A stretch of DNA of 64,000 bases from Klebsiella phage vB_KpM_FBKp34. Location of the stretch: sequence record MW394390.1, one strand, 5' to 3'. Below the pieces are notes generated by a model. That model was not told where the DNA came from. It saw nothing but the letters and a program-made list of their open reading frames with translations, and ran no database searches. How positions within the stretch are numbered: position 1 is the stretch's first letter; each line of letters opens with the position of its first letter. Positions 21,465 through 43,222 of this stretch are shown here, one piece after another. A program made the position numbers and the translations under genes.

Positions 21465-21581
21465 TTAAAAACCCCAATTTTCTTCAGATTTGATAAGATC
21501 TGGTCTCTCATCATCGTGATACCACTCATCACTAAAGATTCCTTCACCATAACCAATAAAACCATCAAATTGATCTTTCAT
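21465..21581 (-). CDS. small ORF (38 aa) between tRNAs
   Basis: AAGGAGA RBS 7 nt upstream of ATG; MKDQFDGFIGYGEGIFSDEWYHDDERPDLIKSEENWGF. Confidence 0.3.
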   Translation of the reverse strand: MKDQFDGFIGYGEGIFSDEWYHDDERPDLIKSEENWGF

Positions 21582-21603
21582 ATTTTTATTCTCCTTAAAA
21601 ATT

Positions 21604-21679
<76 letters not shown>

Positions 21680-23924: not shown

Positions 23925-25330
23925 CAGGCTATTTGACATCCTCCCCATCCTAAAGGATGGGGATTCCTAATTCATCGAGGTTTCTAATGAAACCTCTCCA
24001 AAGGCTTAAATTTCCGTGTGTCCCACGGTATTTATTTCTATATAACTATAATATATTAAATTCTTTTATGCAGCAAGAGCTTTACAATTAAAAATTTCTA
24101 AACCTCTTTTATGAATATTTAAAGCAGCATTAATGTCTCGGTCATGGTCTGTTTTACAAGAAGGACACACCCAATGACGAACATTAAGTTTCAATTCCTC
24201 AAGAACATGACCACAACATGAACAAGTTTTAGACGAGGGATAGAATTGTTCTATCTTCACAATGCTACGTCCAAACCAGGATGCTTTATACTCAAGTTGC
24301 CTTACAAACTCACCCCAAGATGCATCAGCAATATGTTTTGCCAATTTTCTATTTTTAATCATATTTTTAACTTTCAAAGTTTCAGTAGAAATTATTTGGT
24401 AAGTTTTTACTAAATTAGATGTTGCTTTATGCAATGCATCACGGCGAGAATCACTAACTTTAGCATGTGTTTTAGCAACTTTCAAACGCATTTTATTATA
24501 ATTGCTTCCACCTTTTTTCATCCGACTAAGTTTTCTCTGCAAACGTGCGAGACGTTTAGCATATTTCTTTGTAAACTTGCCATTTTTACCTTTAAGTCCA
24601 TCTGCTGTAATATAAAGGTCTTTTAAACCAAGATCAATGCCTGTTGTCTTACTCGATATTGGCAGTTCTTCAATTTCAGTTTCACACAAACAAGACACAA
24701 AATATCTACCAGATGCATCTTTACTGATAGTAATTGACGAAGGGTGACTTGGTAATTCACCATAACTCCATTTAACATCCAGCGAGACTTTCATTGATTT
24801 GGCAATGAAAAGTTGACCATTAATGTATTTAAAAGCATTCTTCGTGAGATTAAATGAGTAACTATTATCATAACGGCTTTTGAACTTAGGAAATCTAGCT
24901 CTTCCAGAGAAAAAGTTGCTATAAGCTTTTTCTTGGTTTCTCAGTTCTTGTTGCAGTGCTACCACTGAAACTTCGTTAAGCCACTCATATTCTTTTTTAA
25001 CTTTAGTTAACTCTCTCGATGCTTCGGCAAAGTTAATCTTATTTTTATCTTTTTCATAAGCCTCTTTTCTCCAAGCTAATATATGGTTATAGATAAAACG
25101 ACAAGAACCAAATGTCTTAGCAAGAAGGATTTTTTGTTCTTGTGTTGGATAAAAACGCATTTTATAAGCTTTTAAAATAATCTTTTTCATTTGATCCCTT
25201 TCTAACTATCGTTCTCAGTTTGGTCAGAATTCACAAAGTGATCTAAATCATATTTAATAAATCATAAAATTGACATCCTCCTCACCCTAAAGATTGTGGA
25301 GTTTCTCCTTCATAGAACCTTATAATCAAG
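23925..25330 (-). mobile_element. IS200/IS605-family insertion element (TnpB only, no TnpA)
   Basis: tnpB flanked by related subterminal hairpins (RE: CCCCATCC-TAAA-GGATGGGG and GAGGTTTC-TAAT-GAAACCTC; LE: GACATCCTCCTCACCCTAAAGATTGTGGAG, GGTGA-TGTCC-TCACC); both ends share TTGACATCCTCC...CCTAAAG; boundaries approximate. Confidence 0.6.
24066..25190 (-). CDS. tnpB: TnpB (OrfB) RNA-guided nuclease-like transposon protein
   Basis: 374 aa; C-terminal zinc finger CSCCGH...CPSCK and RuvC-III-like [12 protein letters not shown] motif. Confidence 0.8.
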
Positions 25331-27407: not shown

Positions 27408-27484
27408 TGGCAAACCCACTAGGACTCGAACCTAGACTGTACGGTTTTGGAGACCGACATGCTGTCCAGTAACATTCTGGGAAT
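27408..27484 (-). tRNA. tRNA-Trp (anticodon CCA), acceptor with two mismatches
   Basis: D-arm ATGT..GCAT, anticodon arm TCGGT-CTCCAAA-ACCGT, T-arm CTAGG-TTCGAGT-CCTAG, CCA; acceptor ATTCCCA/TGGGTTT pairs only 5 of 7. Confidence 0.5.
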
Positions 27485-27489
27485 ATTGT

Positions 27490-27565
27490 TGGTGGAACCC
27501 GATAGAATCGAACTATCTCCTAATGCTCTTCAGGCATCCGCGCGAACCATCTACGCCAGAGTTCC
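27490..27565 (-). tRNA. tRNA-Phe (anticodon GAA)
   Basis: Acceptor GGAACTC/GGGTTCC, anticodon arm GATGC-CTGAAGA-GCATT, T-arm GATAG-TTCGATT-CTATC, CCA. Confidence 0.8.
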
Positions 27566-27570
27566 TTTAT

Positions 27571-27645
27571 TGGCGGGCATACTTGGACTCGAACCAAGAT
27601 CAAACGGTTAACAGCCGTCCGTACTAACCTTTGTACTATACACCC
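27571..27645 (-). tRNA. tRNA-Asn (anticodon GTT)
   Basis: Acceptor GGGTGTA/TATGCCC, D-arm GTAC..GTAC, anticodon arm GACGG-CTGTTAA-CCGTT, T-arm CTTGG-TTCGAGT-CCAAG, CCA. Confidence 0.8.
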
Positions 27646-27840
27646 TTAAGTTTTACCATAATAGACAGAGATAGTTTTACCATTCTGATTCATTACGTAT
27701 GCTACCTCATCTTCTTTAAGAAAGATATTTTGATCTAGTCCAGAAATAGCAATACTCTTTTGTTTCGGGTTGAATCCGACACTATTGCCATCATGAATCT
27801 CTTCCCCACCTTCTGTCGAAATAACTTTTACTGTTAACAT
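27646..27840 (-). CDS. small hypothetical protein (64 aa) within tRNA cluster
   Basis: CAGGAGAAGCAAATG RBS; stop abuts the 5' end of tRNA-Asn. Confidence 0.4.
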   Translation of the reverse strand: MLTVKVISTEGGEEIHDGNSVGFNPKQKSIAISGLDQNIFLKEDEVAYVMNQNGKTISVYYGKT

Positions 27841-27887
27841 TTGCTTCTCCTGTGGTTTGTCATCTCTGACTTTTAGTTATAAAAATT

Positions 27888-27964
27888 GGTCTCCCCTACA
27901 GGATTCGAACCTGTGACCCGATGCATCCAAAGCACCCACGCTGACCAGACTGCGCTAAGGAGAG
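27888..27964 (-). tRNA. tRNA-Pro (anticodon TGG)
   Basis: Acceptor CTCTCCT/AGGGGAG, anticodon arm GGTGC-TTTGGAT-GCATC, T-arm ACAGG-TTCGAAT-CCTGT, CCA. Confidence 0.75.
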
Positions 27965-27970
27965 ATAATT

Positions 27971-28045
27971 TGGAGGGTAGTAGTGGAATCTAACCACTCT
28001 AATACTGTTTTGCAGACAGATACATGAACACTCTGACAACTACCC
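27971..28045 (-). tRNA. tRNA-Cys (anticodon GCA), weak D-stem
   Basis: Perfect acceptor GGGTAGT/ACTACCC, anticodon loop CTGCAAA, T-arm AGTGG-TTAGATT-CCACT, CCA; D-stem poorly paired. Confidence 0.55.
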
Positions 28046-28051
28046 TTTAAT

Positions 28052-28128
28052 TGGTTGCGGCTATGGGTATTGCACCCATCTTACTCTAGTTTATGAGACT
28101 AGAAAGAACTCTCTGCCTCCCAACCGCA
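28052..28128 (-). tRNA. tRNA-like with anticodon CAT (Met/Ile2), degenerate D-arm and unusual T-loop
   Basis: Acceptor TGCGGTT/AGCCGCA, perfect anticodon arm CTAGT-CTCATAA-ACTAG, T-arm ATGGG-TGCAATA-CCCAT, CCA. Confidence 0.4.
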
Positions 28129-28147
28129 ATAACTTAATACTTAATTA

Positions 28148-28215
28148 TGGCGGGAACTTCATGCACTCCACCATGCGTTGGAAGCCAAGGAGTGTTCTCA
28201 TGTAAGTATTCCCAT
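28148..28215 (-). pseudogene. short tRNA-like remnant (68 nt)
   Basis: Ends in CCA and has partial acceptor pairing TGGGAAT/GTTCCCG but no recognisable D or T arms. Confidence 0.2.
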
Positions 28216-28219
28216 GATT

Positions 28220-28295
28220 TGGTGCTACGGACTGGACTTGAACCAGTGACAACTCGATTATCGGTCGAGCATTCTACCAACTGAATTACCGAAGC
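28220..28295 (-). tRNA. tRNA-Ile (anticodon GAT)
   Basis: D-arm ATTC-AGTTGGTA-GAAT, anticodon arm CTCGA-CCGATAA-TCGAG, T-arm ACTGG-TTCAAGT-CCAGT, CCA; one T-T mismatch in acceptor. Confidence 0.7.
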
Positions 28296-28301
28296 ATTGT
28301 T

Positions 28302-28387
28302 TGGCGGAAGATGCAAGGGTTGAACTTGCACACCCTTTCGGATGGCGGTTTAGCAAACCGCTGTGGCTACCATTTCACCAATCTTCC
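28302..28387 (-). tRNA. tRNA-Ser (anticodon GCT), type II
   Basis: Acceptor GGAAGAT/ATCTTCC, anticodon arm GCGGT-TTGCTAA-ACCGC, variable arm with CCGAAAGGG, T-arm GCAAG-TTCAACC-CTTGC, CCA. Confidence 0.8.
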
Positions 28388-28467
28388 TAAATTTAAAGGC
28401 ATTTAAGCCAGTTAATGTTTCCCTGGATTTATAGACACTGGTTCATTAACATCACACTCGTCTTATC

Positions 28468-28553
28468 TGGCGGTAGATTGAAGAGTCGAACTCCTGCCCT
28501 TTCGGACCCCTCCGGGTTCAAACCGGATTGCCAACCACTTAGCGGAACCTACC
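28468..28553 (-). tRNA. tRNA-Ser (anticodon TGA), type II
   Basis: Acceptor GGTAGGT/ATCTACC, anticodon arm TCCGG-TTTGAAC-CCGGA, long variable arm GGGGTCCGAAAGGGCAGG, TTCGACT T-loop, CCA. Confidence 0.75.
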
Positions 28554-28559
28554 TTTATT

Positions 28560-28637
28560 TGGTACATCTAGAGAGATTCGAACTCATCACTGACTGGAAC
28601 CTAAATCCAGTGCCTCTACCAATTGGGCTATAGATGC
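28560..28637 (-). tRNA. tRNA-like with anticodon TAG (Leu-like) but short variable arm and weak T-stem
   Basis: Acceptor GCATCTA/TAGATGT, 3-bp D-stem with 11-nt loop, anticodon arm CTGGA-TTTAGGT-TCCAG, TTCGAAT loop with only 3 bp T-stem, CCA. Confidence 0.4.
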
Positions 28638-28647
28638 ATTTATTATT

Positions 28648-28725
28648 TGGCGTTCTGTATGGTATTCGAACCCATAGAAATCCACCTTGAAAGGGTGGTG
28701 ACTTTACCTGTTTGTCCAACAGAAC
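28648..28725 (-). tRNA. tRNA-Glu (anticodon TTC)
   Basis: Perfect acceptor GTTCTGT/ACAGAAC, anticodon arm CCACC-CTTTCAA-GGTGG, T-arm ATGGG-TTCGAAT-ACCAT, CCA. Confidence 0.75.
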
Positions 28726-28733
28726 ACAATTTT

Positions 28734-28847
28734 TGGCGGTGAATTCAGGAATCGAACCTGAGCCTACTCCATGACAAGGGAGATTGAATGCTGTAAAACT
28801 TCTCTAAGAAGTTATTTTTAGTTATTCTACCACTAAACTAATTCACC
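28734..28847 (-). tRNA. 114-nt tRNA-Leu-like (anticodon TAG) with about 38 nt of extra sequence
   Basis: Perfect acceptor GGTGAAT/ATTCACC, D-arm GTTT-AGTGGTA-GAAT, canonical anticodon arm AACTT-CTTAGAG-AAGTT, extra hairpin CTCC-CTTGTCAT-GGAG containing a TTTACAGCA repeat motif, perfect T-arm TCAGG-TTCGATT-CCTGA, CCA. Confidence 0.5.
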
Positions 28848-28853
28848 TAAACT

Positions 28854-28930
28854 TGGCGCGTCCGACGGGTTACGATCCCGCATTCTCTCCCGTGACAGGG
28901 GAGTACCATTACCTAGCCAGCCCCAGACGC
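28854..28930 (-). tRNA. tRNA-Asp (anticodon GTC) with non-canonical T-loop
   Basis: Acceptor GCGTCTG/CGGACGC, anticodon arm CTCCC-CTGTCAC-GGGAG, T-arm GCGGG-ATCGTAA-CCCGT (A54/T58), CCA. Confidence 0.65.
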
Positions 28931-28940
28931 TTAATTTGGT

Positions 28941-28990
28941 GTGGGAAGATGGAGTCGAACCAGCGAAGACGTATGTCGGGAGTTTTACTA
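28941..28990 (-). pseudogene. orphan tRNA 3' fragment (T-arm, acceptor 3' strand, CCA)
   Basis: GCTGG-TTCGACT-CCATC T-arm then TTCCCAC-A-CCA; no complementary 5' acceptor strand or D-arm within 150 nt upstream. Confidence 0.35.
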
Positions 28991-29029
28991 TTCTCCAGTG
29001 TATTTGCTGTATAACTACATCGGCTAATT

Positions 29030-29170
29030 TAATTATCAGAAGCTATCTTTTCTATACTTTCGCTCTACCAGGCTGAGCTATTCCCCGTCAGTTGTTCGGG
29101 GAAGCAGGATTTGAACCTACGACCAAAAGTTCCCATTAGATTTTATTTGCTGTAAAGCTTCTTTGATAAA
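29030..29170 (-). ncRNA. candidate Y-RNA-like ncRNA containing a circularly permuted tRNA-like module
   Basis: On the minus strand a tRNA 3' half (ACTTT-TGGTC-GTAGG-TTCAAAT-CCTGC-TTCCCCG-A) precedes, across an 8-nt linker, a 5' half (CGGGGAA-TA-GCTC-AGCCTGGTA-GAGC-G-AAAGT). The halves pair perfectly (7/7 acceptor, 5/5 anticodon-stem). Flanks can pair as AGAAGCT/AGCTTCT and ATCT/AGAT. Lies directly downstream of the Ro60-like gene on the same strand. Confidence 0.4.
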
Positions 29171-29359
29171 ATTGTCGGCAGAAGAATTTATTTTCTATGC
29201 ATGAAATTTTAAAATTGCTGTATTTCTTCTTGCCAAGATTTATTTATAAAAGATTCAGAAGATATTCTTTTCGCTACATTTCAAGTGTAATGTTGTTTTA
29301 TATTTGCTGTAAATCTTCAAGAACCTTTTATAGATAAATCTTTGTTTCTAAACTATGTA

Positions 29360-29395
29360 TTTACTTTAGCATAGGGGCTAACACCTTGTCAACCC
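29360..29395 (-). promoter_or_regulatory. sigma70-like promoter with extended -10 (minus strand) upstream of the tRNA/ncRNA block
   Basis: Minus strand reads TTGACA-15 nt-TGCTAAAGT. Confidence 0.4.
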
Positions 29396-29409
29396 CTATT
29401 TTTAATTAT

Positions 29410-30849
29410 TTAGAAATCATAACGTGGTACGTTAACTAACTTCTGCATAACTTTAACAGGTTCTAACTCACCTGTCAAGAGTCCTTTCATAATCGCTGGT
29501 GAAAATCCTGAAACCAATGCTGTACCTTTCTGACCTACTTGAACTGGCACGTTGCCTCTCTGATGGGCTGCAAGATTCCAGAAAACAAGCTGAGGCATGG
29601 TATATCCAGACTGACTGTACATGAGAGCAATAGACTCAAAGTTTGTCATACCTGAAATAGCTTGGTTAAATTCCATATCAGAGAATACGATAACTTTACT
29701 AGGCATATCCCCTTGTGTCAAGTTGTGTTTCTTACCTAACTCAAGAATTCTTGCAAAAGCTTTCATAATATCAGTTGATCCATACTCAACATGTTCTTGT
29801 ACCTTAGCAAGTTTCTGTGCAAGAGTCAAGGAACTTCCTACATCAATAAAATAAGGATTTGTTGAATACACCATCATCTGATCTTTAAAGATGCCTTTAT
29901 TACGTTCAGCAATGTAAAGAGATAAAGCAATCCCTACATGAAGAGCATAAATATCACCAGAAACTTTTGCGTTATCAAAAGTCATTGAACCAGAAACATC
30001 AGATAAACAGATAATGTTTTCACTTGTACCTTCAGTATAATCTGGCAATGCTTTCCATTGGGCATTTGCTACTGACTTATCTCCGTGCATACAAGATTTT
30101 ACAATATCATACGGATAAACAGCACCTGCATTGATCTTAGCTTGTCCATCTTCTTTAATCAGGCTTTCACGATACTGTGCATAACGTTCACTGTCCACAC
30201 GATTAAATAGTGCCTGATAACGTGCTGCTGCAAGTGATGGCAGCTTGCTATAATCAATAGCACCGTATTCTTTGCGAGAAAGACTCTGTTCCACAGTATT
30301 AGACAAAGAGGACAAGAGTTTATTATATTCCTGATAACTCAGTTTCATAAATTTAGCAAGTACCTTTGCATTATTTTTATTTTTAACTGTGTTATTTCCA
30401 CGCATACGTGGCATCCATTTTGCGCATAGTCCTGCGTTAGTCTTATCTGTTAAACAGTCAGCGATAAACTGCAAGGCTTCTTTTTCAACTGGTGTTCCAA
30501 TAGCTTCAAGAACATCGTCCCAACGACCAAGTTCTGGAATCTTAACTAACAAACGTGTTGCGAGTTTTGGATTCTGGTCACAAATGTTTTTAAATGTTTT
30601 TCTAAAAATATTTCTTTCACCCATACCTCCGCGAATATCTCGGGAGTACAGAAGAATACGTACAGCAGTTTCAGCATCTTCACTAAGAGCTTGCCAGAAA
30701 AGATCATCAGAAACAACATTCGGATTCTTACGTAAAGTACCAATCTGGAAAAACAAATCCACATTTTTATTCAGTGAAGATTCATGAGTAACTGCACCAT
30801 TAAGTGTCAGTTGGGACTTAGTACGGGATGCATCAAACAGCTTAGACAT
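29410..30849 (-). CDS. putative Ro60/TROVE-like RNA-binding protein with C-terminal von Willebrand A domain (DUF2828-type)
   Basis: 479 aa; C-terminal vWA with MIDAS LSDVSGSM; N-terminal ~270 aa helical domain of Ro/TROVE-like character (domain call by memory, not verified). Confidence 0.45.
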   Translation of the reverse strand: MSKLFDASRTKSQLTLNGAVTHESSLNKNVDLFFQIGTLRKNPNVVSDDLFWQALSEDAETAVRILLYSRDIRGGMGERNIFRKTFKNICDQNPKLATRLLVKIPELGRWDDVLEAIGTPVEKEALQFIADCLTDKTNAGLCAKWMPRMRGNNTVKNKNNAKVLAKFMKLSYQEYNKLLSSLSNTVEQSLSRKEYGAIDYSKLPSLAAARYQALFNRVDSERYAQYRESLIKEDGQAKINAGAVYPYDIVKSCMHGDKSVANAQWKALPDYTEGTSENIICLSDVSGSMTFDNAKVSGDIYALHVGIALSLYIAERNKGIFKDQMMVYSTNPYFIDVGSSLTLAQKLAKVQEHVEYGSTDIMKAFARILELGKKHNLTQGDMPSKVIVFSDMEFNQAISGMTNFESIALMYSQSGYTMPQLVFWNLAAHQRGNVPVQVGQKGTALVSGFSPAIMKGLLTGELEPVKVMQKLVNVPRYDF

Positions 30850-30931
30850 AATTAACTCCTTTGTTTATTAACTCGTTCGAAATGAACTATAGCAAAAGTT
30901 ACAAACAGAAGTCAAGTATGTTTTTAAAATT

Positions 30932-32191: not shown

Positions 32192-33877
32192 TTAAAGTTG
32201 TGACGCTGCTCGTTCACGAATCGTTGTCAGGTCTTCATCGACAATCAGCTTGCCGTTGTAGAACACACGACGCAACTCGTTATCGTCAGACTGTACATCT
32301 TCAAGCTGACAATTGTCAACCAGTTTCAGTTCGCCATTCTCATCACGAACAACCTTCAGGAAACCTTTTGCAGATTTCTTACCGAGGTCAGTCTTCGGTT
32401 CTTTGACAACCATGATCTGCTGACCATCAATCACAGCGCCAGTTGCCTTAACAGCCATACCCAGTGAATCGCGGGTTGTGTACTGCGTGGTGAAAGAACC
32501 GACGCCGTAAACAATGTTGCTGGATGCAAAACCTTTTTCTTTCAAACGTTCAAAGATGTCTTTTGCACGAGCAACAGTGATGGAGTCACCGTAAATCAGA
32601 CCAACATGACTATCAAGAACTTTGTAACCTTTAGTGTTAAATTCACCACCGAAGATTTCCCACAGACACTGGATTGCACCTTTAACTTCATGCTCTTCAA
32701 GACCTGAAGGTTGGAAGTCGAAGTAGGCATTATTCTCATCGTCAACAAGAATCCGGTAGTATTTACCTTCAATCTTGGCAACTTCTGAATTTGAATCTTC
32801 CTGTAGTGCTGAGTGTGCATCAGACCAGTCATCAAACTCACCGAGGCTACGATAGCCAGCAATGATATGCTCTGGAATACCAGAATCAGGACGGAATACT
32901 ACACGACCATCACGGGCCATGATGTCCTGTTTCAGGATCGCTGCTGCTTTGGTGATAATCGCCCAAAAGTCATAACTGTCTGCCACGTAGGAAACAAAAC
33001 CTTTAGGGAAAATTTCCGTAATGTAACGACGCAGGAACTCAACCTCAGCCAAGAAACGCGCTTCATCCAGAGTCAATTCAGGGTGTTCACCTTGTAAACG
33101 ACCAACGATGAAACCGATGTTCGTTGTTGCAACAGAGTGTTCAGATGCAGGAATAGAACCAGCAACGAACTTGCCTTTCATGTTGTAATAACGATTTGCA
33201 TACAGAATTGCTGGGATAGTATCAGTACCCATTGAGTTGATCAGTTGACCAAACTCACTCTGTGCTGCGTCGTGCGTCCCAGATTCACCACGATATGCGA
33301 AACAGTGGTTCTGGAAAGGCACATGCAAGTTGTTATCGCAAGTCTCAGCAGCCCATTTTTCAGACAGCTTGCGATACTGCCAGAACGTAGTTGCAGTCGT
33401 AATAGTTTTCCAAGTTTCTGCGGAGATCACACTTTCCAGGAAGTTAGGCAACCAGTAAAAATCAGGATGCGTGTTCTGAATGGTGAACAGCGGAACCTGT
33501 ACCGGAGACAGAGTACCTTCAGGAATCGAACGGATTTCCAGTGGCAGATAACCAAGGTCATGCAGCTTTTCAAATCCCCAAGTTTCAACCATGTTAGGAC
33601 CAATACTCAGATCACAAATTTCTTTGTACTGTTCAATAGCTTCTTCTTTACTTTTCTTGAAGAAGTTTTCGTTAAACATGTCGATAAGGAACCACTTAAT
33701 GAATCCCTGAAGACCTGCCATCATAACACGCTGGTCGTTATCAGCGAAGTGAATGAAGTGCTTCGCATTTCGTGGTGTCATGTTGTCCTGAACAATCTCA
33801 GAGCGTTTATCGTACATAGAAATGTGGCTTGGCTTATACCAATCCGCAAACATGATAGGGTTTTCTTTATACAGCAT
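32192..33877 (-). CDS. nadV: nicotinamide phosphoribosyltransferase (Nampt / NadV-like)
   Basis: 561 aa; NAPRTase-family motifs (GTDTIPA, DSYD, GLIYGDSIT, VYGVGSFT); co-localised with prs, nadR-like and pnuC. Confidence 0.7.
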   Translation of the reverse strand: MLYKENPIMFADWYKPSHISMYDKRSEIVQDNMTPRNAKHFIHFADNDQRVMMAGLQGFIKWFLIDMFNENFFKKSKEEAIEQYKEICDLSIGPNMVETWGFEKLHDLGYLPLEIRSIPEGTLSPVQVPLFTIQNTHPDFYWLPNFLESVISAETWKTITTATTFWQYRKLSEKWAAETCDNNLHVPFQNHCFAYRGESGTHDAAQSEFGQLINSMGTDTIPAILYANRYYNMKGKFVAGSIPASEHSVATTNIGFIVGRLQGEHPELTLDEARFLAEVEFLRRYITEIFPKGFVSYVADSYDFWAIITKAAAILKQDIMARDGRVVFRPDSGIPEHIIAGYRSLGEFDDWSDAHSALQEDSNSEVAKIEGKYYRILVDDENNAYFDFQPSGLEEHEVKGAIQCLWEIFGGEFNTKGYKVLDSHVGLIYGDSITVARAKDIFERLKEKGFASSNIVYGVGSFTTQYTTRDSLGMAVKATGAVIDGQQIMVVKEPKTDLGKKSAKGFLKVVRDENGELKLVDNCQLEDVQSDDNELRRVFYNGKLIVDEDLTTIRERAASQL

Positions 33878-34466
33878 CTTTTGTGTCTCCTTTGTGGTTT
33901 ATTCTATAAAATATGCAATTTCTATGAGAGTGTCTTTTACCTTTTACAACAGCACTAACTAAGCGATAGTCAAAGCCATAATCTCTCATCTCTTCATTGC
34001 CATTCATAATAGCAACTATTTCATTTGTGTCAAGAGTTATTGCAAATATTGTGAAAGATAATCTTGTTGCCCTCCTCCCACTTGGCATATCCTTCAACCC
34101 ATTGGCAAGTGCGTGAATTTGGTTAGTTTTGTTATCAACCCACTCAAGGTTTTCAACATTATTGTTTTGCTTGTTACCATCCTTGTGGTTGACTTGAGGA
34201 AGTCTTGTAGGATTAGGTATAAATGCTTCTGCAACTACACGATGAACCTTGAGACTGACTTTCTTGCCACTTTTATCCTTCGTCCTAAGACGTAAATAAC
34301 CACAATTATCTTCTTGAAATTTTAAAATCTTGCCTTTTACTTTACATAAGGTTCCTGTATCAGACCGTGCATAAACACGGTCAACAGAATAGATATTACC
34401 TTCGTTATCTACTTCAAGATATCCTTCAAAATCCTGAACGGATTTCTTTGAGAATTCCATGTTCAT
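33867..34466 (-). CDS. HNH homing endonuclease (NUMOD4-type N-terminus plus HNH_3)
   Basis: Start re-assigned to ATG at 34466 (GGGAGA RBS); HNH motif NHKDGNKQNNNVENLEW; 5' end overlaps the 3' end of prs. Confidence 0.6.
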   Translation of the reverse strand: MNMEFSKKSVQDFEGYLEVDNEGNIYSVDRVYARSDTGTLCKVKGKILKFQEDNCGYLRLRTKDKSGKKVSLKVHRVVAEAFIPNPTRLPQVNHKDGNKQNNNVENLEWVDNKTNQIHALANGLKDMPSGRRATRLSFTIFAITLDTNEIVAIMNGNEEMRDYGFDYRLVSAVVKGKRHSHRNCIFYRINHKGDTKDAV

Positions 34467-35271
34467 TTCTCCCTGAAATATTTTCCATCCATGGATGGTA
34501 AGTGTAAACCTCATCAACAAACCCTTCGAGGATATCTATCCCTTTTGAGAAGATACCATGTGTAACGTATAAAATTACACGTTTTGCACCTTTTTGTTTA
34601 AGAACCTCCCCTAATTTAAGAAAGGTGAACGCACCATCGGCGATGTCATCTACGATGACACATTCTTTACCAGCCACATCCCCAAAAACCTCTGTCCCGA
34701 AAATTTCTCCTGTCGTTACATCACGAACCTTACCAGCCTCCACCAGTGGAAGGCGCATACGATCTGCAACCTTTTGTGCTTTCTTCCTTGCACCAGCATC
34801 TGGTGCTACAATAATAACGTCTCCACCATAAAGGTGGTCATGGAATTCTGAAATCAGTATATCTTGACCACGAACATGAACATTGTTTAGTAATGCTGTT
34901 GAAACATCACTATGTGGATCATCTACCACAACTTTATCAAAACCAAGCGAGTTTACAATGTTTGCAAATACCTTAATGGCAAGAGCTTCACCAGGCTGCA
35001 TCACACGATCCTGCCGAGCATAGGGGATGTAAGGCAGATTTAGAGTAAACTCTGCATGAACATCAAGATTCTCAAGCCGAGAAACTGCATCCACGAGTAA
35101 AGCCAATACCATAATATCCGCAGAATTTTTAATCTTTGCTGTAATGTCAACAAAACCAATACTACCTTTCGGAGCATGGTTCAAGTCAATCTTCACTTGC
35201 TCCTCACCACCTTTGAACGTAAAGTGGTCTACAGGAACAATAAGTTTGTTCAGTCTAAGTTCAAGACTCAT
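34426..35271 (-). CDS. prs: ribose-phosphate pyrophosphokinase (PRPP synthetase)
   Basis: 281 aa; PRPP-binding loop VIVDDIADGAFT and Prs-type N-terminal domain. Confidence 0.7.
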   Translation of the reverse strand: MSLELRLNKLIVPVDHFTFKGGEEQVKIDLNHAPKGSIGFVDITAKIKNSADIMVLALLVDAVSRLENLDVHAEFTLNLPYIPYARQDRVMQPGEALAIKVFANIVNSLGFDKVVVDDPHSDVSTALLNNVHVRGQDILISEFHDHLYGGDVIIVAPDAGARKKAQKVADRMRLPLVEAGKVRDVTTGEIFGTEVFGDVAGKECVIVDDIADGAFTFLKLGEVLKQKGAKRVILYVTHGIFSKGIDILEGFVDEVYTYHPWMENISGRNEHGILKEIRSGF

Positions 35272-35651
35272 TTTAAATCTCCTCTATTAACTACTATGTA
35301 ATGTCTTGGTTTTGCATGACCTGATTGGTCTACAAAACCACTCTTGATTCTTTGTATATAACCATACTCTTCCATCCTTTTCAAGAACTCTGTTACTTTT
35401 GTTCTTGATTTTTCCCCAAATCCAAGTAATTCACACAATGTTTGTTGGGAAGGATAGAACACTTTAGTCAAATCTGCAAGCTTGTCTTTCTTCTTAGCCA
35501 AGTGACAAAAGTAGTCATATCTCCACCATAATCTTATCAATCTTTGTAAATCACCACCAGACAACCTCTTATCGAAAACCCAGTAGACAGGGATAGAGAC
35601 AAAAGAGTTCTCTTTTATTATAATCTCATTGTCATCTAACCTTATTTTCAT
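35268..35651 (-). CDS. putative winged-helix DNA-binding regulator
   Basis: 127 aa; HTH-like segment QQTLCELLGFGEKSRTKVTEFLKRMEEYGYIQR; first gene leftward from the divergent regulatory region. Confidence 0.35.
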   Translation of the reverse strand: MKIRLDDNEIIIKENSFVSIPVYWVFDKRLSGGDLQRLIRLWWRYDYFCHLAKKKDKLADLTKVFYPSQQTLCELLGFGEKSRTKVTEFLKRMEEYGYIQRIKSGFVDQSGHAKPRHYIVVNRGDLK

Positions 35652-35699
35652 CCAAGTTGCTCCTGCCTGTATCTCACTCTATAAGTTTTACCACTTCAC

Positions 35700-35990
35700 A
35701 GTTTCAGTGTCAACACCTAATTGTCCCTAAAAAGAGACATTCCTAATTGTCCCTAAAAAGGCACACAATACTAACTTATGATCTAGTTTATAGACTAACT
35801 TATGATTATATATTATTAATTATAAATAATTAATATGATTTAGATCACATGTAAATTTATACAGTTGTTTTGTGATCTAAATTTATGTTTTATCATCTTT
35901 TGATCACATAGTAAAGTTAAAAAATAATCTTGACTTTAGTCTAATAGATAGTTAGTATCTATACATAAATTAATAATTATGAGGTACTTA
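35700..35990. promoter_or_regulatory. divergent regulatory region with direct and inverted repeats
   Basis: Two direct copies of CCTAATTGTCCCTAAAAAG; 12-bp inverted repeats ATTTAGATCACA / TGTGATCTAAAT about 30 nt apart; repeated AACTTATGAT. Confidence 0.45.
35930..35958 (+). promoter_or_regulatory. sigma70-like promoter for the rightward operon
   Basis: TTGACT-17 nt-TAGTAT, then GAGGT RBS before the ATG at 35990. Confidence 0.5.
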
Positions 35991-36286
35991 TGTCAGATTT
36001 TACTACAATCATGTCAGTGGTAGATAAACCGAACAAGCGTATGCGTAAAGAGAAACCTACCACTGAAGAAGTCTTGTTCTTAGATCAGGTAAGAAGTGTA
36101 AGACTCTCTGTAATCCATGGTCAACCTGTTGTAGTGGTAACGGAAACAGAAAGAAGTTTTGAAGATGTCTTCAAACAGTACACCAGTGTGATGAAACTTT
36201 ATGACAAAAGAGGCTTGATCACACTGAAGAGTCTTGATAAAGTTACAGCTTCAGATTTAGATAAAAATATTGTGGAGATCCATTAA
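35990..36286 (+). CDS. hypothetical protein
   Basis: 98 aa, first ORF of rightward operon, GAGGT RBS. Confidence 0.45.
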   Translation: MSDFTTIMSVVDKPNKRMRKEKPTTEEVLFLDQVRSVRLSVIHGQPVVVVTETERSFEDVFKQYTSVMKLYDKRGLITLKSLDKVTASDLDKNIVEIH

Positions 36287-37332
36287 TGACTATTGGTTTG
36301 ATTTTTGGGAAGTTTGCACCTTTACACTTAGGACACATCAACATGGTGATCAAAGCTTCTGCTTTGGTTGACACATTGCATGTGGTCTTAAGTTATGATC
36401 AAAAATTCAATGATACATTAGAACCTAGTGTTAGTGAACCTTTAACCAAAGCCAACAGACATTTAGCTTTGATTGAAACCTTTAAAGATTTTAATAACAT
36501 CATCGTCAGTGTCATTGATGAAAGTGCGGTTCCTGGTTATCCAGAAGGTGAAGTAATGTTCACTAATATGCTGAAGAAAAAGACTAGAACTCTACACTTC
36601 GATAAAGTATTTACAAGTGAACCTAGTTATGATAAGTATCTTAAAGATAATTTTCCAGACTCTGAGCACATCGTTGTAGATGCTAACCGTGATGAAGTAA
36701 ATATCAGTGCAACAATGATCAGAAATAATCCCTATAAGTATTGGGATTTTATTGCTCCAGCCATGAGAAAACACTATGTGAAAAAAGTTTGTATCATTGG
36801 TGTAGAGTCTACTGGCAAATCAACACTAGTTAAAAAGCTCTCTAAAGCTCTACAGACGCTTTTTGTAGAAGAGGTAGGTCGAACTATCTGTGAGCAAGAA
36901 TATGGCCTCACAGAGGCTTACATGAAGCCTGAAGACTATGTATACGTTGCTATGAAGCATAAGATGAAAGAAAAGGAACTTTTGCCATATGCAAACAAGA
37001 TTTTGTTGAGTGATACAAATGCAGTTGTGACAGACTTTTCTATGAATACATTTAACAACTTGGAGCACTACTCCCCACTGTTGTCAGAGATCTGTTTTGC
37101 TGAGAAATATGATCTTGTCTTGTACTTACGTAATGACATCCCTTGGGTAGATGACCCTTTACGTAAAAAATCAACACAAGATGACAGAGAAAAATCACAA
37201 AAGGTTCTTGACAATTTTGTATACAACGTTTATAAAGTTTATGAGAAGTGTCCAGTTATCCAAATTGGTGGGACTTACGAAAACCGCTTCAATGAAGCAA
37301 TGAAAGAAATTAAAAAACTTCTAGCAAGTTAA
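36286..37332 (+). CDS. nadR: bifunctional NMN adenylyltransferase / ribosylnicotinamide kinase (NadR-like, NatV-like)
   Basis: N-terminal nucleotidyltransferase motif FGKFAPLHLGH; C-terminal Walker A GVESTGKST of the RNK domain. Confidence 0.8.
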   Translation: MTIGLIFGKFAPLHLGHINMVIKASALVDTLHVVLSYDQKFNDTLEPSVSEPLTKANRHLALIETFKDFNNIIVSVIDESAVPGYPEGEVMFTNMLKKKTRTLHFDKVFTSEPSYDKYLKDNFPDSEHIVVDANRDEVNISATMIRNNPYKYWDFIAPAMRKHYVKKVCIIGVESTGKSTLVKKLSKALQTLFVEEVGRTICEQEYGLTEAYMKPEDYVYVAMKHKMKEKELLPYANKILLSDTNAVVTDFSMNTFNNLEHYSPLLSEICFAEKYDLVLYLRNDIPWVDDPLRKKSTQDDREKSQKVLDNFVYNVYKVYEKCPVIQIGGTYENRFNEAMKEIKKLLAS

Positions 37333-37346
37333 AAACAGGAGTCTTT

Positions 37347-37532
37347 ATGAAAATAGGTGATATGGTACGTTGTACTCACAGTGCAGATAATGATTTTACT
37401 GTAGGTAAGCTTTACATTATTGATGCTTTTGATGGAGATGGTGATCCTATTCTAGTTGATAACGATGGATATATAGGTAACATTGGAGTGATTATGAATG
37501 GCTATCTTTACCAGTTTGAGGAGGTAAAATGA
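37347..37532 (+). CDS. hypothetical protein
   Basis: 61 aa ORF. Confidence 0.35.
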   Translation: MKIGDMVRCTHSADNDFTVGKLYIIDAFDGDGDPILVDNDGYIGNIGVIMNGYLYQFEEVK

Positions 37533-38227
37533 ATATTTATCTTAAAACAACTTTGACTGATTTTTATGGTTGGTCTAAGTTAGAATATCTTTGGCTTTTT
37601 GTTTGTTCCGTAACTATTGCAGCAACATCAGTTATTATGGGTGCAACTCTCGTTGAATTTGTTTCATCTGTTACAGGGATCATTGGTGCGATCCTTGTTG
37701 CTAAAGGGAAACTCTCAAGTTACTACTGGGGATTTGTTGCAACAGCATTGTATGCATATATCTCATTCACATACAAAATGTATGGTGAAACAATTATGTA
37801 TACTGTATTGTTTACACCTTTACAGTTGATTGGTGGTATTCTTTGGTCTCAAAAGTTAAAGCTTTCTGAAGATGGACAGAAGGCGGATGTTGTTAAGAAA
37901 TGGTTAACAACTCAACAACGTCTCATTGTTACTGTTGGTACACTAATCGTTATTGCAGCCTATGCTTATGGTGTTTCCTTGTTGAAGGGATATTCTCCTG
38001 GTTTAGATTCTGCGACAGCAATTCTCTCTGTGCTAGCTACAGTGTTAATGGTACTACGTTACTCTGAACAATGGTATGTTTGGGTAATTGTTAACATTGT
38101 TGCCGTTGTTCTTTGGATTCAGGCTACAATGCATCATGAGGGTGGAGGAGCAGTCGTGTTAGTAATGTGGGTTGCTTACCTCTTAAACTCAGTGTATGGT
38201 GTATATCAGTGGCGTAAAATTGCTTAA
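37529..38227 (+). CDS. pnuC: nicotinamide riboside transporter PnuC
   Basis: 232 aa, multiple TM helices, Trp-rich PnuC-like signature segments; follows nadR-like gene. Confidence 0.65.
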   Translation: MNIYLKTTLTDFYGWSKLEYLWLFVCSVTIAATSVIMGATLVEFVSSVTGIIGAILVAKGKLSSYYWGFVATALYAYISFTYKMYGETIMYTVLFTPLQLIGGILWSQKLKLSEDGQKADVVKKWLTTQQRLIVTVGTLIVIAAYAYGVSLLKGYSPGLDSATAILSVLATVLMVLRYSEQWYVWVIVNIVAVVLWIQATMHHEGGGAVVLVMWVAYLLNSVYGVYQWRKIA

Positions 38228-40585: not shown

Positions 40586-41143
40586 ATGTATGTGACTTCA
40601 GACCTGCATTTTATGCATAGGAGGGTTTCTGAATTTTGTCCTGCTTATAGAAAATGGAATTATCTTCATGATATGACAGAAGGACTTATTTTAGCTTGGA
40701 ATGAAAAAGCTAAAACACCAGGGACAAAAATGTATCATCTCGGCGATTTCTGCTTTGGGACACCAGAAGAAACAGATCTCATAGCTTCCCGTCTGAATGG
40801 TGATATTACATTTATTGTTGGCAACCATGATTACTCAAAACACCGAGAAGTGCTTGAGAAGTATGGTGAAGTGAAGTATTACGATGAAGTTAAATATGGT
40901 AAGAAATTCTTTGTCCTTTGTCACTATCCTATTGCATCTTGGAATAAACAAGGAAGAGGTTCAATTATGCTTCATGGGCATAGTCATGGAAGTTTTCCTG
41001 ATGAAATGTATGGAAAGATGTTAGATGTCGGTTGGGATGCACAAGGGAAGATCTTGCATTTTGATGAAATCATTGCTAAGATGGAGCGTCGTGAAGTAAA
41101 AGTAATTGACCACCACAAAAATTTTGGTTTAGATAATGAATAA
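40586..41143 (+). CDS. calcineurin-like metallophosphoesterase (candidate RNA/DNA end 3'-phosphatase)
   Basis: Motifs DLHF, GDF, GNHD, HGHSH. Confidence 0.7.
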   Translation: MYVTSDLHFMHRRVSEFCPAYRKWNYLHDMTEGLILAWNEKAKTPGTKMYHLGDFCFGTPEETDLIASRLNGDITFIVGNHDYSKHREVLEKYGEVKYYDEVKYGKKFFVLCHYPIASWNKQGRGSIMLHGHSHGSFPDEMYGKMLDVGWDAQGKILHFDEIIAKMERREVKVIDHHKNFGLDNE

Positions 41144-41333
41144 AGACATTGATCTTATTGAGAATGTAATATTTCTTCTGAGTGAACTTGAAGATTATGT
41201 TGACAACCTAGATATGAGCGAATATGATGACTTCAATGAGATGAAGGAAGCACAAAAAGAAGTTCTTAAACTTTTGAAGAATCTTACACGAAGGAGAGAA
41301 AATGAAGTTCAACGTAGACGACTTAGTTGCTAA
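41136..41333 (+). CDS. hypothetical protein
   Basis: 65 aa ORF. Confidence 0.35.
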   Translation: MNKDIDLIENVIFLLSELEDYVDNLDMSEYDDFNEMKEAQKEVLKLLKNLTRRRENEVQRRRLSC

Positions 41334-42222
41334 AAATCTGGTGACTAAAAAGACTTACACCGAAGGCCCGTTCGCTGGTCTTTCTGTGCTCAAATATAAG
41401 AACAATGTGTTCTGGGACAACCTGTGGCATACAGACTCACGTCTGCTTGAGTGTCGTGGTATGGTTGTTGATGCAGAAGACAACGTTATTATCTGGCCTT
41501 TTACGAAGATTTTTAACCGTTTCGAGAATGGAACAGACTTACCACTCGATCAGCAGGTTGTTTGCATTCGTAAAGTCAACGGATTTATGGCAACTGCTGC
41601 GGTACGTGGTGAAAAACTTCTTGTATCAACGACAGGAACCTTGGATTCTGAGTTCTCTGATCTGGCACGGAAATATCTTGAAAAGATGAAATTAGATCTT
41701 GTTGCATTTCCAGAGGACTATACTTTCATCTTTGAAATTTGTGACAGTAGCGACCCTCACATTGTTGAGGAGGAAGAGGGTGCATATTTGATTGGTATGC
41801 GAGACTTAGCCTTAAATGGGACAATGCTTGAAGAATATCGTCTTGATCGCATAGCTGAAGTGATCGGAGCAAAGCGTCCTGAATGGCATAATATGTTCTT
41901 CAGTGATGTGATCAAGTACTCCAAGGCTGTAACTCACGAAGGTTTTGTTATCCGTAATGTCGGAACAGATAACGAAAACAGCGAACTGCTTCTTAAAATA
42001 AAGTCACCACATTACTTGACGAAGAAGTTCCTGATGCGAGGTGGACAGAACAAGTGGGACATGATCTGGGACAATCCAAAAGAAGCTAAAAAGCGTATTG
42101 ATGAAGAATATTATAACCTTATTGATTATTTACGCTGGGCCTTTGAAAAAGAGGAATGGGCAGTTAAAGATGCTCAATATCGTCGTAAATGGATCGAGGC
42201 TTATTTTGAGGAGAAATGCTAA
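41302..42222 (+). CDS. putative ATP-dependent RNA ligase (Rnl-like nucleotidyltransferase)
   Basis: Motif I KVNG, motif III FIFEI, motif IV EGFVIR, motif V LKIKS. Confidence 0.5.
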   Translation: MKFNVDDLVAKNLVTKKTYTEGPFAGLSVLKYKNNVFWDNLWHTDSRLLECRGMVVDAEDNVIIWPFTKIFNRFENGTDLPLDQQVVCIRKVNGFMATAAVRGEKLLVSTTGTLDSEFSDLARKYLEKMKLDLVAFPEDYTFIFEICDSSDPHIVEEEEGAYLIGMRDLALNGTMLEEYRLDRIAEVIGAKRPEWHNMFFSDVIKYSKAVTHEGFVIRNVGTDNENSELLLKIKSPHYLTKKFLMRGGQNKWDMIWDNPKEAKKRIDEEYYNLIDYLRWAFEKEEWAVKDAQYRRKWIEAYFEEKC

Positions 42223-42566
42223 TGATCGTATGGCTTGATGACTTAAGAGATCCAAAAGACTACGGTTATCCTGATGCATTGTGGTTTAAGACCTCTCAGA
42301 AGTTTATGGATTTTCTTGATAATCGGTCAAAGTTCTATCGTTATGTCACAGAGTGGCATTTCGATAATGACCTCGGAGAAGATTCAGAAATGGAGGGCTA
42401 TGACTGCCTGTTAGCCTTGGAAGAGAAGCTTGTGTATGGGAAACTTCCTGTGCATGATGCTAAACTCTATGTCCACACATCTAACCCTTCTGCGGCAAAA
42501 AAGTTCATGCTTGCAAAAGAGAGCTTCTTGAAGTATCGTATCACGATCTTAAGAAACAATTACTGA
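42216..42566 (+). CDS. hypothetical protein
   Basis: 116 aa ORF. Confidence 0.4.
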   Translation: MLMIVWLDDLRDPKDYGYPDALWFKTSQKFMDFLDNRSKFYRYVTEWHFDNDLGEDSEMEGYDCLLALEEKLVYGKLPVHDAKLYVHTSNPSAAKKFMLAKESFLKYRITILRNNY

Positions 42567-42575
42567 GGAGAAGAG

Positions 42576-43001
42576 ATGGAAAAGACTCTGATTATCTTGC
42601 GTGGTGTGTCTGGTGCTGGTAAGTCTACAGTAGCAGAAATGTTATCAGATGGCGTATGGCCTATCTGTGAAGCAGATAAATTTCACTACACGGAAGAGGG
42701 TGTTTACGACTGGAAACCTGAAAATATCCAGGCAGCGCATAAATGGTGTCAAAATCAAGTAAGAGGTTACATGGAAGACAGCTTCCATGGTTTAGGTAAC
42801 TGGGTAAAAATAATTGTATCTAACACTACAACTACTGAAAAAGAACTTAAACCATATATTGACTTAGCTGAAGAGTATGGGTATAAAGTTGTTAGTTTGG
42901 TTGTTGAAAATAGACATGGAAATGATTCTATTCATAACGTCCCACAGGAAATCCGTGATACTCAAGAGAGACGTCTTAGAAACTCATTAAAATTACAGTA
43001 G
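42576..43001 (+). CDS. P-loop kinase (polynucleotide 5'-kinase-like)
   Basis: Walker A ILRGVSGAGKST at the N-terminus; 141 aa, size of T4 Pnk kinase domain. Confidence 0.4.
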   Translation: MEKTLIILRGVSGAGKSTVAEMLSDGVWPICEADKFHYTEEGVYDWKPENIQAAHKWCQNQVRGYMEDSFHGLGNWVKIIVSNTTTTEKELKPYIDLAEEYGYKVVSLVVENRHGNDSIHNVPQEIRDTQERRLRNSLKLQ

Positions 43002-43009
43002 GATAAATT

Positions 43010-43222
43010 ATGAAACATATTTTAATAGTACTATTATTCTTATCTTATTCAGTTTTTGCAAATGAGAATAAGAAGGATGTATTTTTGTTTACACCTAAAA
43101 CTGATGAGATCTTCGAAGTCAAAACTAATGATGGAAAACAATTGTGGTGTTATGTCTCCGATAAATTAATAACGAGATTAACTATAAAGTGCTTTGATAA
43201 AAATTTTGATAAGGAGAAATAA
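43010..43222 (+). CDS. small secreted protein
   Basis: Signal peptide MKHILIVLLFLSYSVFA. Confidence 0.4.
   Translation: MKHILIVLLFLSYSVFANENKKDVFLFTPKTDEIFEVKTNDGKQLWCYVSDKLITRLTIKCFDKNFDKEK

Follow-up and report, generated by a model that had tools for sequence, protein, structure and literature searches.

A candidate Ro60/Y-RNA-like module in Klebsiella phage vB_KpM_FBKp34: a divergent Ro60-type protein beside an array of small structured RNAs

Introduction

Does a phage protein that resembles Ro60 in its domain layout come with RNA partners of its own? The question is raised by a 64,000-nucleotide (nt) stretch of the genome of Klebsiella phage vB_KpM_FBKp34 (record MW394390.1; hereafter the window, to which positions refer unless another locus is named), in which the gene of a 479-amino-acid (aa) protein, at 29410-30849 on the minus strand, is followed by non-coding sequence and then by a cluster of tRNA genes. 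Animals, about 5% of bacteria and a small number of phages are known to have Ro60/Y-RNA particles; Y RNAs attach by their conserved stem to the outer face of Ro60 rings, and RNA ends are threaded through the hole. A first-pass annotation made from the sequence alone had read the locus as a Ro60/TROVE-like protein followed by one tRNA-mimic RNA of the bacterial YrlA type, that is, a candidate Ro/Y-RNA pair, and as an overall reading this is supported here by a fold match, YrlA architecture, gene linkage and compensatory changes in many phages. We conclude that the locus probably encodes a Ro60-type protein together with small RNA partners in an adjacent array, acting as a Y-RNA-like particle.

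A survey limited to genomes annotated with a TROVE protein located same-strand YrlA RNAs no more than 4 kb from the Ro60 gene in 254 bacteria and 22 phages; its authors caution that a permuted tRNA can be simulated by tRNAs in tandem (Chen et al. 2014, PMC4201824). A Y RNA tethers Rsr to polynucleotide phosphorylase (PNPase) in Deinococcus and Salmonella (Chen 2013, 2014; PMC4201824), while the Ro60 of Thermus phage phiLo binds two adjacent Y-like RNAs as well as host PNPase, and dampens PNPase activity (PMC12135203). For Escherichia phage Bas63 (JohannRWettstein), gp130 has been described as structurally Ro60-like and as required against the Ppl defence system (PhageMaP preprint, 10.1101/2024.10.10.617714).

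Results

The gene product is predicted to fold like Ro60

The 479-aa open reading frame (ORF) combines, by Pfam and AlphaFold, a DUF2828 helical ring with a DUF7788 von Willebrand factor A (vWA) domain, matched by hmmscan at residues 156-268 (E 2.4e-24) and 279-461 (E 7e-43), respectively. The DVSGSM signature pointed out at first pass is present as LSDVSGSMTF at residues 282-291, and the adhesion site dependent on a metal ion (MIDAS), of the form DxSxS...T...D (D284, S286, S288, T359 and D391), is invariant in 51 homologues. A confident AlphaFold model built on 51 homologues (predicted local distance difference test, pLDDT, 86.5; predicted template modelling score, pTM, 0.86) shows a HEAT-like toroid of helical repeats closed by the C-terminal vWA domain. 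When the model was compared with the Protein Data Bank (PDB) by Foldseek, the top 11 matches were all Ro60, over the full length and at E 3e-9 to 2e-7, among them the frog entries 1YVR, 2I91, 1YVP, 9NFA and 9NEP, Deinococcus Rsr (2NVO) and the Ro60 of Thermus phage phiLo (9KOP, 9L5Y); vWA-only proteins came after these, at E above 1e-3. The modelled fold suggests that the gene product is a divergent Ro60-type protein, in which a vWA domain with an intact metal site closes a ring of helical repeats.

The family is large, with more than 6500 matching database proteins. A tblastn search placed it in 710 phage records; Felixounavirus, KVP40-like Vibrio phages and mycobacteriophages are represented, as are phages of Campylobacter, Listeria, Staphylococcus, Enterococcus and Bacillus, and DUF2828 proteins are also present in plants and mimivirus-like sequences. 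Full-length identity to Bas63 gp130 is 52%. Over 2 kb the window shares 98% identity with Klebsiella phage KP13-16 (OP617741, Stephanstirmvirinae), in whose record the counterpart gene is carried as a plain 'hypothetical protein', but the Ro-likeness of the family is already known: mycobacteriophage members are annotated as 'Ro-like RNA binding protein' and the PhageMaP preprint says as much, so the protein half of the system is not new.

An array of handle-bearing RNA units follows the gene

The 479 nt from the stop codon of the gene to tRNA-Asp (28930), on the minus strand, house an array of RNA units lying between the protein gene and 11 ARAGORN-called tRNA genes on the same strand (27408-28930). 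After the gene come, in order, a promoter-bearing hairpin, short unit A, short unit B, long unit C and a partial fourth unit, with at least three units complete (A, B and C). Every unit has the same handle, which consists of a 6-7 bp stem joining the two ends, with A-U and G-C as its outermost pairs, followed by single-stranded UACAGCAA on the 5' side and by CUG on the 3' side. The window contains TACAGCAA 11 times where 2.96 occurrences would be expected, and four of these copies fall within 308 nt on the minus strand between the stop codon and tRNA-Asp. The single tRNA-mimic RNA of the first-pass annotation is present as unit C; the rest of the array, namely units A and B, the partial fourth unit and the common UACAGCAA, had been missed.

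Unit C (29035-29164, minus strand) was delimited by Rfam YrlA, by the covariance model R1, by its minimum-energy fold and by covariation. R1 was built from 18 long units on a MAFFT alignment that misaligned the 3' stems of six units, and gives unit C 113.9 bits. The permuted tRNA-like module proposed earlier at 29055-29134 is found at 29130-29056, both by reading the sequence and by pattern scan: a T arm (GUAGG-UUCAAAU-CCUGC), the 3' acceptor strand UUCCCCG, a 9-nt loop (AACAACUGA) that closes the acceptor, the 5' acceptor strand CGGGGAA and a D arm (GCUC-AGCCUGGUA-GAGC) whose loop has the GG of normal D loops, together with a 5-bp anticodon-stem-like helix (ACUUU/AAAGU) and a variable-loop-like UGGUC. 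The terminal stem pairs 29162-29156 with 29044-29038, and UUACAGCAA, at 29155-29147, lies within a 14-nt bulge. The two flanking pairings predicted at first pass, AGAAGCU/AGCUUCU and AUCU/AGAU, both exist and enclose the tRNA-like module; RNAfold, which had been suggested as a check, places both of them, the anticodon-like stem and the closed acceptor stem in the minimum-energy structure (-33.8 kcal/mol, z = -2.05).

The Rfam model YrlA (RF02553) matches 29036-29143 (minus strand) across its whole length with 39.6 bits and E 2e-6 (a 4-kb search with all 4227 Rfam families), where the family's gathering score is 69 bits; KP13-16 and a further locus, L040, score 39.7 and 38.2 bits (L-numbers denote loci holding a homologous DUF2828 gene, L001 being KP13-16 and L084 Bas63, MZ501086). 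Unit C has the YrlA architecture, that is, a T arm, a D arm, a loop-closed acceptor and ends that leave at the anticodon-stem position, and begins 246 nt after the stop codon on the gene's strand, within the 4 kb of a Ro60 gene that is typical of YrlA. In place of the GNCGAA element it carries U.C.GCA(A), which is invariant in 18 long units. Since the score is sub-threshold and GNCGAA is absent, unit C is best described as a YrlA-like variant outside RF02553, and because the protein in addition has no TROVE sequence match the locus as a whole is filed outside both RF02553 and PF05731. The unit has neither an anticodon loop nor a chargeable acceptor end and ARAGORN is silent on it; a permuted functional tRNA was rejected for lack of the anticodon loop.

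Pattern scanning identified the short Y-like units, both on the minus strand. Unit A (29254-29321) has the stem GAAGAU/AUCUUC, the motif UUACAGCAA, a variable A-rich loop and a 3' CUG, and scores 27.5 bits with R1; unit B (29177-29232) has the stem AGAAGAA/UUCUUCU, the motif AUACAGCAA and a 3' CUG, and scores 31.2 bits. The stem of unit A is present in the minimum-energy fold. Short units are no more stable than shuffled sequence (z about -0.15), so that the support for them is comparative. A terminator reading was rejected, since these units combine weak, AU-rich stems with large loops and lack a T-run.

Of the fourth unit (28963-29021, minus strand) the 5' part is present, with the stem strand GUAGUU, the motif AUACAGCAA and the start of a T arm, as seen in the alignment to KP13-16, where an intact fourth unit lies at L001 7065-6917 (R1 49.8 bits). 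It is ended by a 942-bp deletion relative to KP13-16 and is joined to the 3' remnant of a tRNA-Tyr ending in CCA (28945-28962, minus strand). The sequence missing from the window (L001 6064-7005) comprises the rest of the fourth unit, a further YrlA-like unit, tRNA-Thr, a transfer-messenger RNA (tmRNA)-like element, tRNA-Gln and most of tRNA-Tyr. The junction, at 28963/28962, falls inside a GGTTCGA that is common to the T loops of the fourth unit and tRNA-Tyr, and from the aligned sequences the loss looks like T-loop/T-loop recombination.

A tentative further member lies at 28734-28847 (minus strand), a tRNA-like RNA of normal topology that has a 51-nt insert where the anticodon arm would be (47.7 bits with Rfam tRNA, insert included; no ARAGORN call). 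In its fold the insert forms the hairpin AACUUC-UUAGA-GAAGUU, directly followed by UUACAGCA, a helix plus motif as in the Y-like units and circularly permuted relative to unit C. It has no counterpart beyond the window and KP13-16 and for that reason stays unconfirmed. A separate tRNA is matched by Rfam at 27974-28045 (minus strand, 43.9 bits), again without an ARAGORN call.

Base pairing is kept by compensatory changes

Covariation was assessed in the 35 best long units. Standard pairs made up 92.4% of all sequence-by-base-pair combinations, against 61.7% in shuffles and 36-45% with slid partners, percentages that lean towards the model because the alignment was fitted to R1; the variety of pair types is unaffected by this bias. 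Both sides had changed at 275 positions, against 88 in shuffles, and 23 of 28 pairs showed compensatory change. The T stem was 100% paired, the terminal stem 97.6% (outer A-U in 33 of 35 units, G-C in 29 of 35), the closed acceptor 97.4%, with all 7 pairs compensatory, and the D stem 95%; the anticodon-like stem was weaker, at 69.6%.

Units accompany DUF2828 genes across distant phages

A strict permuted-tRNA scan (T arm, 7 nt, loop, perfect complement of the 7 nt, D arm) yielded 26 modules from 81 homologue-bearing loci, every one of them on the gene's strand; at least eleven acceptor-stem sequences are represented among them. A relaxed version was too noisy and was dropped. Around the modules the flanks share one layout, in which (A)G and a stem of 6-8 bp are followed by YAC(A/C)GCAA, a spacer, the tRNA-like core, an A-rich spacer, the complementary stem strand and CUG. 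Scanning 80 viral loci for the handle only (motif, stem and CUG) returned 102 units whose strand is that of the gene and a single one on the opposite strand, with at least one unit in 54 loci and with lengths in two groups, 38-71 nt and 95-135 nt. Loose matching of the motif gave 376 matches on the gene's strand; a terminal stem accompanies 106 of these, compared with 7.7 after shuffling, while on the other strand there is 1 with a stem, compared with 2.95 expected. Two pattern matches in the window, at 25700-25517 and 13031-12966, lie inside ORFs and were taken as chance.

With R1 (E<=1, 630 kb) we obtained 173 matches, all on the gene's strand and including short units, in which the core is skipped. 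In 80 loci from bacterial genomes and metagenome-assembled genomes, 46 of 46 matches at E<=0.01 were on the gene's strand, mostly just upstream of genes whose products are homologues at 32-42% protein identity. R1 matches at 28673-28805 and 21564-21668 of the window were rejected as tandem-tRNA artefacts. In many loci the first unit begins 10-26 nt past the stop codon, and some hold arrays of 3-7 units, a part of them 1-2.5 kb from the gene and interleaved with tRNAs. At least 15 loci have units beside the gene and no tRNA gene within 3 kb, among them L040 with seven units, which sets the units apart from tRNA clusters. Diverse prophages as well as phages have the layout next to their DUF2828 genes.

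In Bas63, a short unit lies between tRNA-Met and tRNA-Asn (L084 22238-22300, 82237-82299 of the record), and a YrlA-like unit (L084 22780-22910, 82779-82909 of the record, R1 80.8 bits) lies under two antisense 'hypothetical protein' coding sequences, bas63_0137 and bas63_0138, which are probably spurious.

Variant forms were also seen. In the sequence immediately downstream of the gene, nine loci (L039, L041, L042, L048, L053, L059, L066, L071 and L075) have YUCUGCAA (e.g., GUAUUCUGCAA) instead of UACAGCAA, in most cases preceded by a terminator-like hairpin and with stems that the pattern scan does not resolve. At L089 2224-2337 and L118 2709-2826, the arms of the inner module (D, anticodon-like and T) follow the normal order and the motif-bearing terminal stem stands in for the acceptor stem, a third way of joining handle and tRNA-like body. 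Directly after short units beside the DUF2828 gene, L064 has a tmRNA above the Rfam threshold (4634-5076, 68.3 bits), and weaker tmRNA and permuted-tmRNA matches occur in the KP13-16 array (L001 6428-6503 and 6270-6477).

Short units resemble dictyostelid Class I RNAs

When the intergenic region was scanned with Rfam, just one match apart from YrlA and the tRNAs was worth noting, Dicty_Class_I_RNA (RF01414), with 25.2 bits for unit A (E 0.017, 491-nt search, 4227 families) and 23.6 bits for unit B (E 0.044, 4227 families). In five out of nine widely differing phage loci the unit that immediately follows the gene is matched by the same model, over the full model and on the gene's strand, with 25.7-31.9 bits (best in L035); no unit, at 23.6-31.9 bits, reaches the gathering score of 41.5 bits. 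Class I RNAs are 42-65 nt long and have a 6-bp end-joining stem conserved in structure and not in sequence, a 5' G that is invariant and pairs with the C in a 3' CUGU, an unpaired conserved 11-nt motif next to the 5' stem strand and a variable A-rich remainder; their genes are clustered, they have been reported as unique to Dictyostelia, and their mechanism is unexplained (Kjellin et al. 2021, PMC7919456). Curated D. discoideum members read GUUGAC-CUUACAGCAA-variable-GUCAAC-UG (PMC7919456). The motif is CCUUACAGCAA in D. discoideum, and the phage units, (A)G-stem-UUACAGCAA-variable-stem-CUG, have the same layout: UUACAGCAA matches 9 of the 11 motif positions, and units A, B and C each have the short terminal stem, the 5' G paired with the C of the 3' CUG, and the adjacent motif. 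A Dictyostelium-only model, R2, gave 13 matches with E<1 in 630 kb, all on phage units, with best E-values of 0.003-1 and with unit B second (20.2 bits); the stems on which R2 was trained hardly vary, which makes it a weak model.

There are also differences. The known Class I binding protein is Rnp1A, an RNA recognition motif (RRM) protein, whereas the candidate phage partner is a Ro-like ring; Class I RNAs have eukaryotic promoter elements, which do not apply to phage units; and in partial dictyostelid proteome sequences no DUF2828-like motif was found, only an unrelated vWA protein. That the phage short units and the dictyostelid RNAs form one RNA class, defined by a G-C-closed end-joining stem, a single-stranded UUACAGCAA and a 3' CUG and partnered by a DUF2828 Ro-like ring, is a tentative proposal from shared sequence layout that we think more apt to fail than to hold, and we treat it as a lead, not a finding. 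If it were true, Class I RNAs, abundant and unexplained since 2004, would be Y-RNA analogues that may have come in together with a Ro-like protein or have evolved to bind one; a resemblance that is more than coincidence would give a first mechanistic lead for an orphan eukaryotic RNA class.

Promoter candidates and neighbouring genes

A sigma-70-like promoter match upstream of the protein gene (TTGACT-18-TATAGT with TG, 30886-30915, minus strand, consensus scan) is a candidate only, since such matches are no commoner in the region than in shuffles. Just past the stop codon, the sequence reads as a hairpin UAGGGG...CCCCUA (29363-29398, minus strand), which carries at the same coordinates a promoter-like TTGACA-18-TAAAGT with TG (consensus scan) that could drive the RNA array.

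The RNA-repair enzymes mentioned at first pass are present at the domain level at 40586-43001, as a metallophosphoesterase, an Rnl1-type RNA ligase and an AAA_33 kinase. With a Sir2-family protein they occupy 40586-43998, on the strand opposite to a nicotinamide adenine dinucleotide (NAD) salvage set at 32192-38227 (NAMPT-like phosphoribosyltransferase, Prs, NadR-like protein and PnuC-type transporter), within which an HNH endonuclease lies at 33867-34520. Between two phage tRNA blocks there is a TnpB/IS605 OrfB-type gene (24066-25190, minus strand; HTH_OrfB_IS605, OrfB_IS605, Cas12f1-like TNB).

Discussion

The reading of the locus as a Ro60-type protein with its own Y-like RNAs is carried by the similarity of fold, the linkage of gene and RNAs, the RNA structure evident from covariation and, according to the preprint, the defence-related phenotype of the Bas63 orthologue. 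Several observations weigh against it. On the protein side, Pfam TROVE (PF05731) is not matched, hmmscan at E<=1 giving only DUF7788, DUF2828 and a weak VWA_CoxE, and neither phmmer nor a 51-sequence profile matched Ro60 chains of the PDB at E<=10; since sequence and profile routes fail, homology to Ro60 rests on predicted structure, and of the Ro60/TROVE-like architecture claimed at first pass it is the predicted Ro60 fold that is supported, and not a TROVE match by sequence. On the RNA side, unit C scores below the YrlA gathering score and lacks the canonical motif GNCGAA(N0-1)G that is linked to Ro binding, so that the YrlA assignment is right in architecture, strand and covariation next to homologous genes, and not in family membership. 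The fold stability of the short units and the model-fitted pairing percentages count on the same side, as do the 26 of 80 viral loci in which the pattern scan found no unit, several of them with variant motifs, and the co-orientation of most phage genes, which makes strand bias alone weaker than it looks. Discrete RNA species and their binding by the protein are themselves predictions from sequence.

The alternative that survives best is that the units are cis-acting leader or trailer elements controlling the DUF2828 mRNA, for example through feedback by the protein, and yield no free small RNAs. Mini-units of 37-54 nt do end exactly at the gene's ribosome-binding site in L021, L023, L024, L025, L037 and L040, in the unit at L018 2950-3010, from a contig of KVP40 size, the loop contains the ribosome-binding site and the 3' stem strand the AUG, and the closeness of the first unit to the stop codon in many loci would fit a trailer. 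Yet in the window there is no unit upstream of the gene and a promoter-like site lies between gene and array, while arrays of 3-7 units, some of them 1-2.5 kb off among tRNAs, are ill-suited to untranslated regions and feedback has no need of a tRNA-shaped module. We consider this explanation unlikely as a replacement for RNA partners; free RNAs and feedback sites can coexist, and in several phages units may secondarily serve feedback control of DUF2828 gene translation.

Protein and RNAs might instead act separately, the tRNA-like RNA as a decoy or sponge for host tRNA nucleases or modifying enzymes and the vWA protein against defence through protein contacts, such as vWA/MIDAS domains make elsewhere. 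The T-loop/D-loop elbow is intact, the phage carries many tRNAs as well as the RNA ligase, kinase and phosphoesterase set, and the model proposed in the preprint for gp130 against Ppl does not invoke RNA (10.1101/2024.10.10.617714). This would leave unexplained why short units without a tRNA-like part have the same handle and tight gene linkage, and why that linkage is kept from 90% down to 32% protein identity; moreover, Ro60-type rings bind RNA in every case studied, and separate action appears to us very unlikely. Highly improbable is a mere tRNA operon, with units that are spacers, processing signals or decayed or rearranged tRNA genes unrelated to the protein: the units do lie between the gene and 11 same-strand tRNA genes, T-loop-mediated rearrangement does occur at the locus and tandem tRNAs mimic permuted ones, as in the two false R1 matches, but the same handle stands beside the gene in the loci without nearby tRNAs, the UACAGCAA handle is not a tRNA feature, and perfect, covarying closed acceptor stems are not expected under decay.

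If the protein does act with the array as a Y-RNA-like particle, the array would be transcribed together with the phage tRNA cluster and the units cut out of the precursor. The handle (stem, UACAGCAA and CUG) would be the binding element of the protein, as the conserved bulged Y RNA stem is for Ro60, and the variable inside of each unit its effector part, a short A-rich loop in units A and B and, in unit C, a tRNA-shaped module that keeps the T-loop/D-loop elbow intact and lacks an anticodon. The insides would recruit or block host RNA enzymes, that of unit C addressing tRNA-recognising enzymes. By analogy with Rsr-YrlA-PNPase and phiLo Ro60, we infer a role in which the particle would gate or tether host exoribonucleases and tRNA-recognising enzymes during infection, so that phage RNAs would be protected or policed and host defence blunted. 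RNA defence and counter-defence is the likely setting: the array runs into the tRNA cluster, a phosphoesterase, an Rnl1-type ligase and a kinase are encoded, and the Bas63 orthologue has a defence-related phenotype.

Ro60/Y-RNA systems have so far been recognised through the TROVE sequence signature and the GNCGAA RNA motif. The present analysis points to a much larger, sequence-divergent Ro-like branch with its own Y-like RNAs and a different, easily searchable handle. In the literature searched we found no description of these RNAs, and the RNA half is new: a widespread variant array with a new handle, in short and tRNA-like forms. The earlier statement that the module is not normally annotated thus applies to the RNAs, whereas the Ro-likeness of the protein is already in annotation and the preprint. 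The protein, already linked by one preprint to counter-defence (Bas63 gp130 against Ppl), gains a concrete, testable RNA partner, and unassigned gaps and spurious small ORFs of phage tRNA regions merit re-annotation. The preprint's authors guessed that some of the downstream 'tRNAs' might be Y RNAs (10.1101/2024.10.10.617714); in contrast, the Bas63 units are not the annotated tRNAs and lie in the unannotated stretches between them.

Compared with known systems, the locus combines shared and distinct features. In contrast to the phiLo Ro60 (PDB 9KOP, 9L5Y), which is a recognisable TROVE protein, and to Rsr, the 479-aa protein is not detectable as TROVE by sequence; phiLo Yrl1 and Yrl2 have a CGAA motif, lie upstream of the gene and, according to the paper, have no tRNA-like module (PMC12135203), unlike the units described here. 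Distinct from YrlA are the replacement of GNCGAA(N)G by UACAGCAA in a 14-nt bulge, the conserved A-U/G-C closing pairs and the 3' CUG. Shared with Rsr/YrlA are the ring-plus-vWA fold and the position of the RNA genes, a few hundred nt away at most and on the same strand; as with YrlA and YrlB, several RNAs stand in tandem, one long and tRNA-like and the others shorter, and as in YrlA a T arm, a D arm and a loop-closed acceptor are combined with an end-joining stem that carries a conserved motif on its 5' strand.

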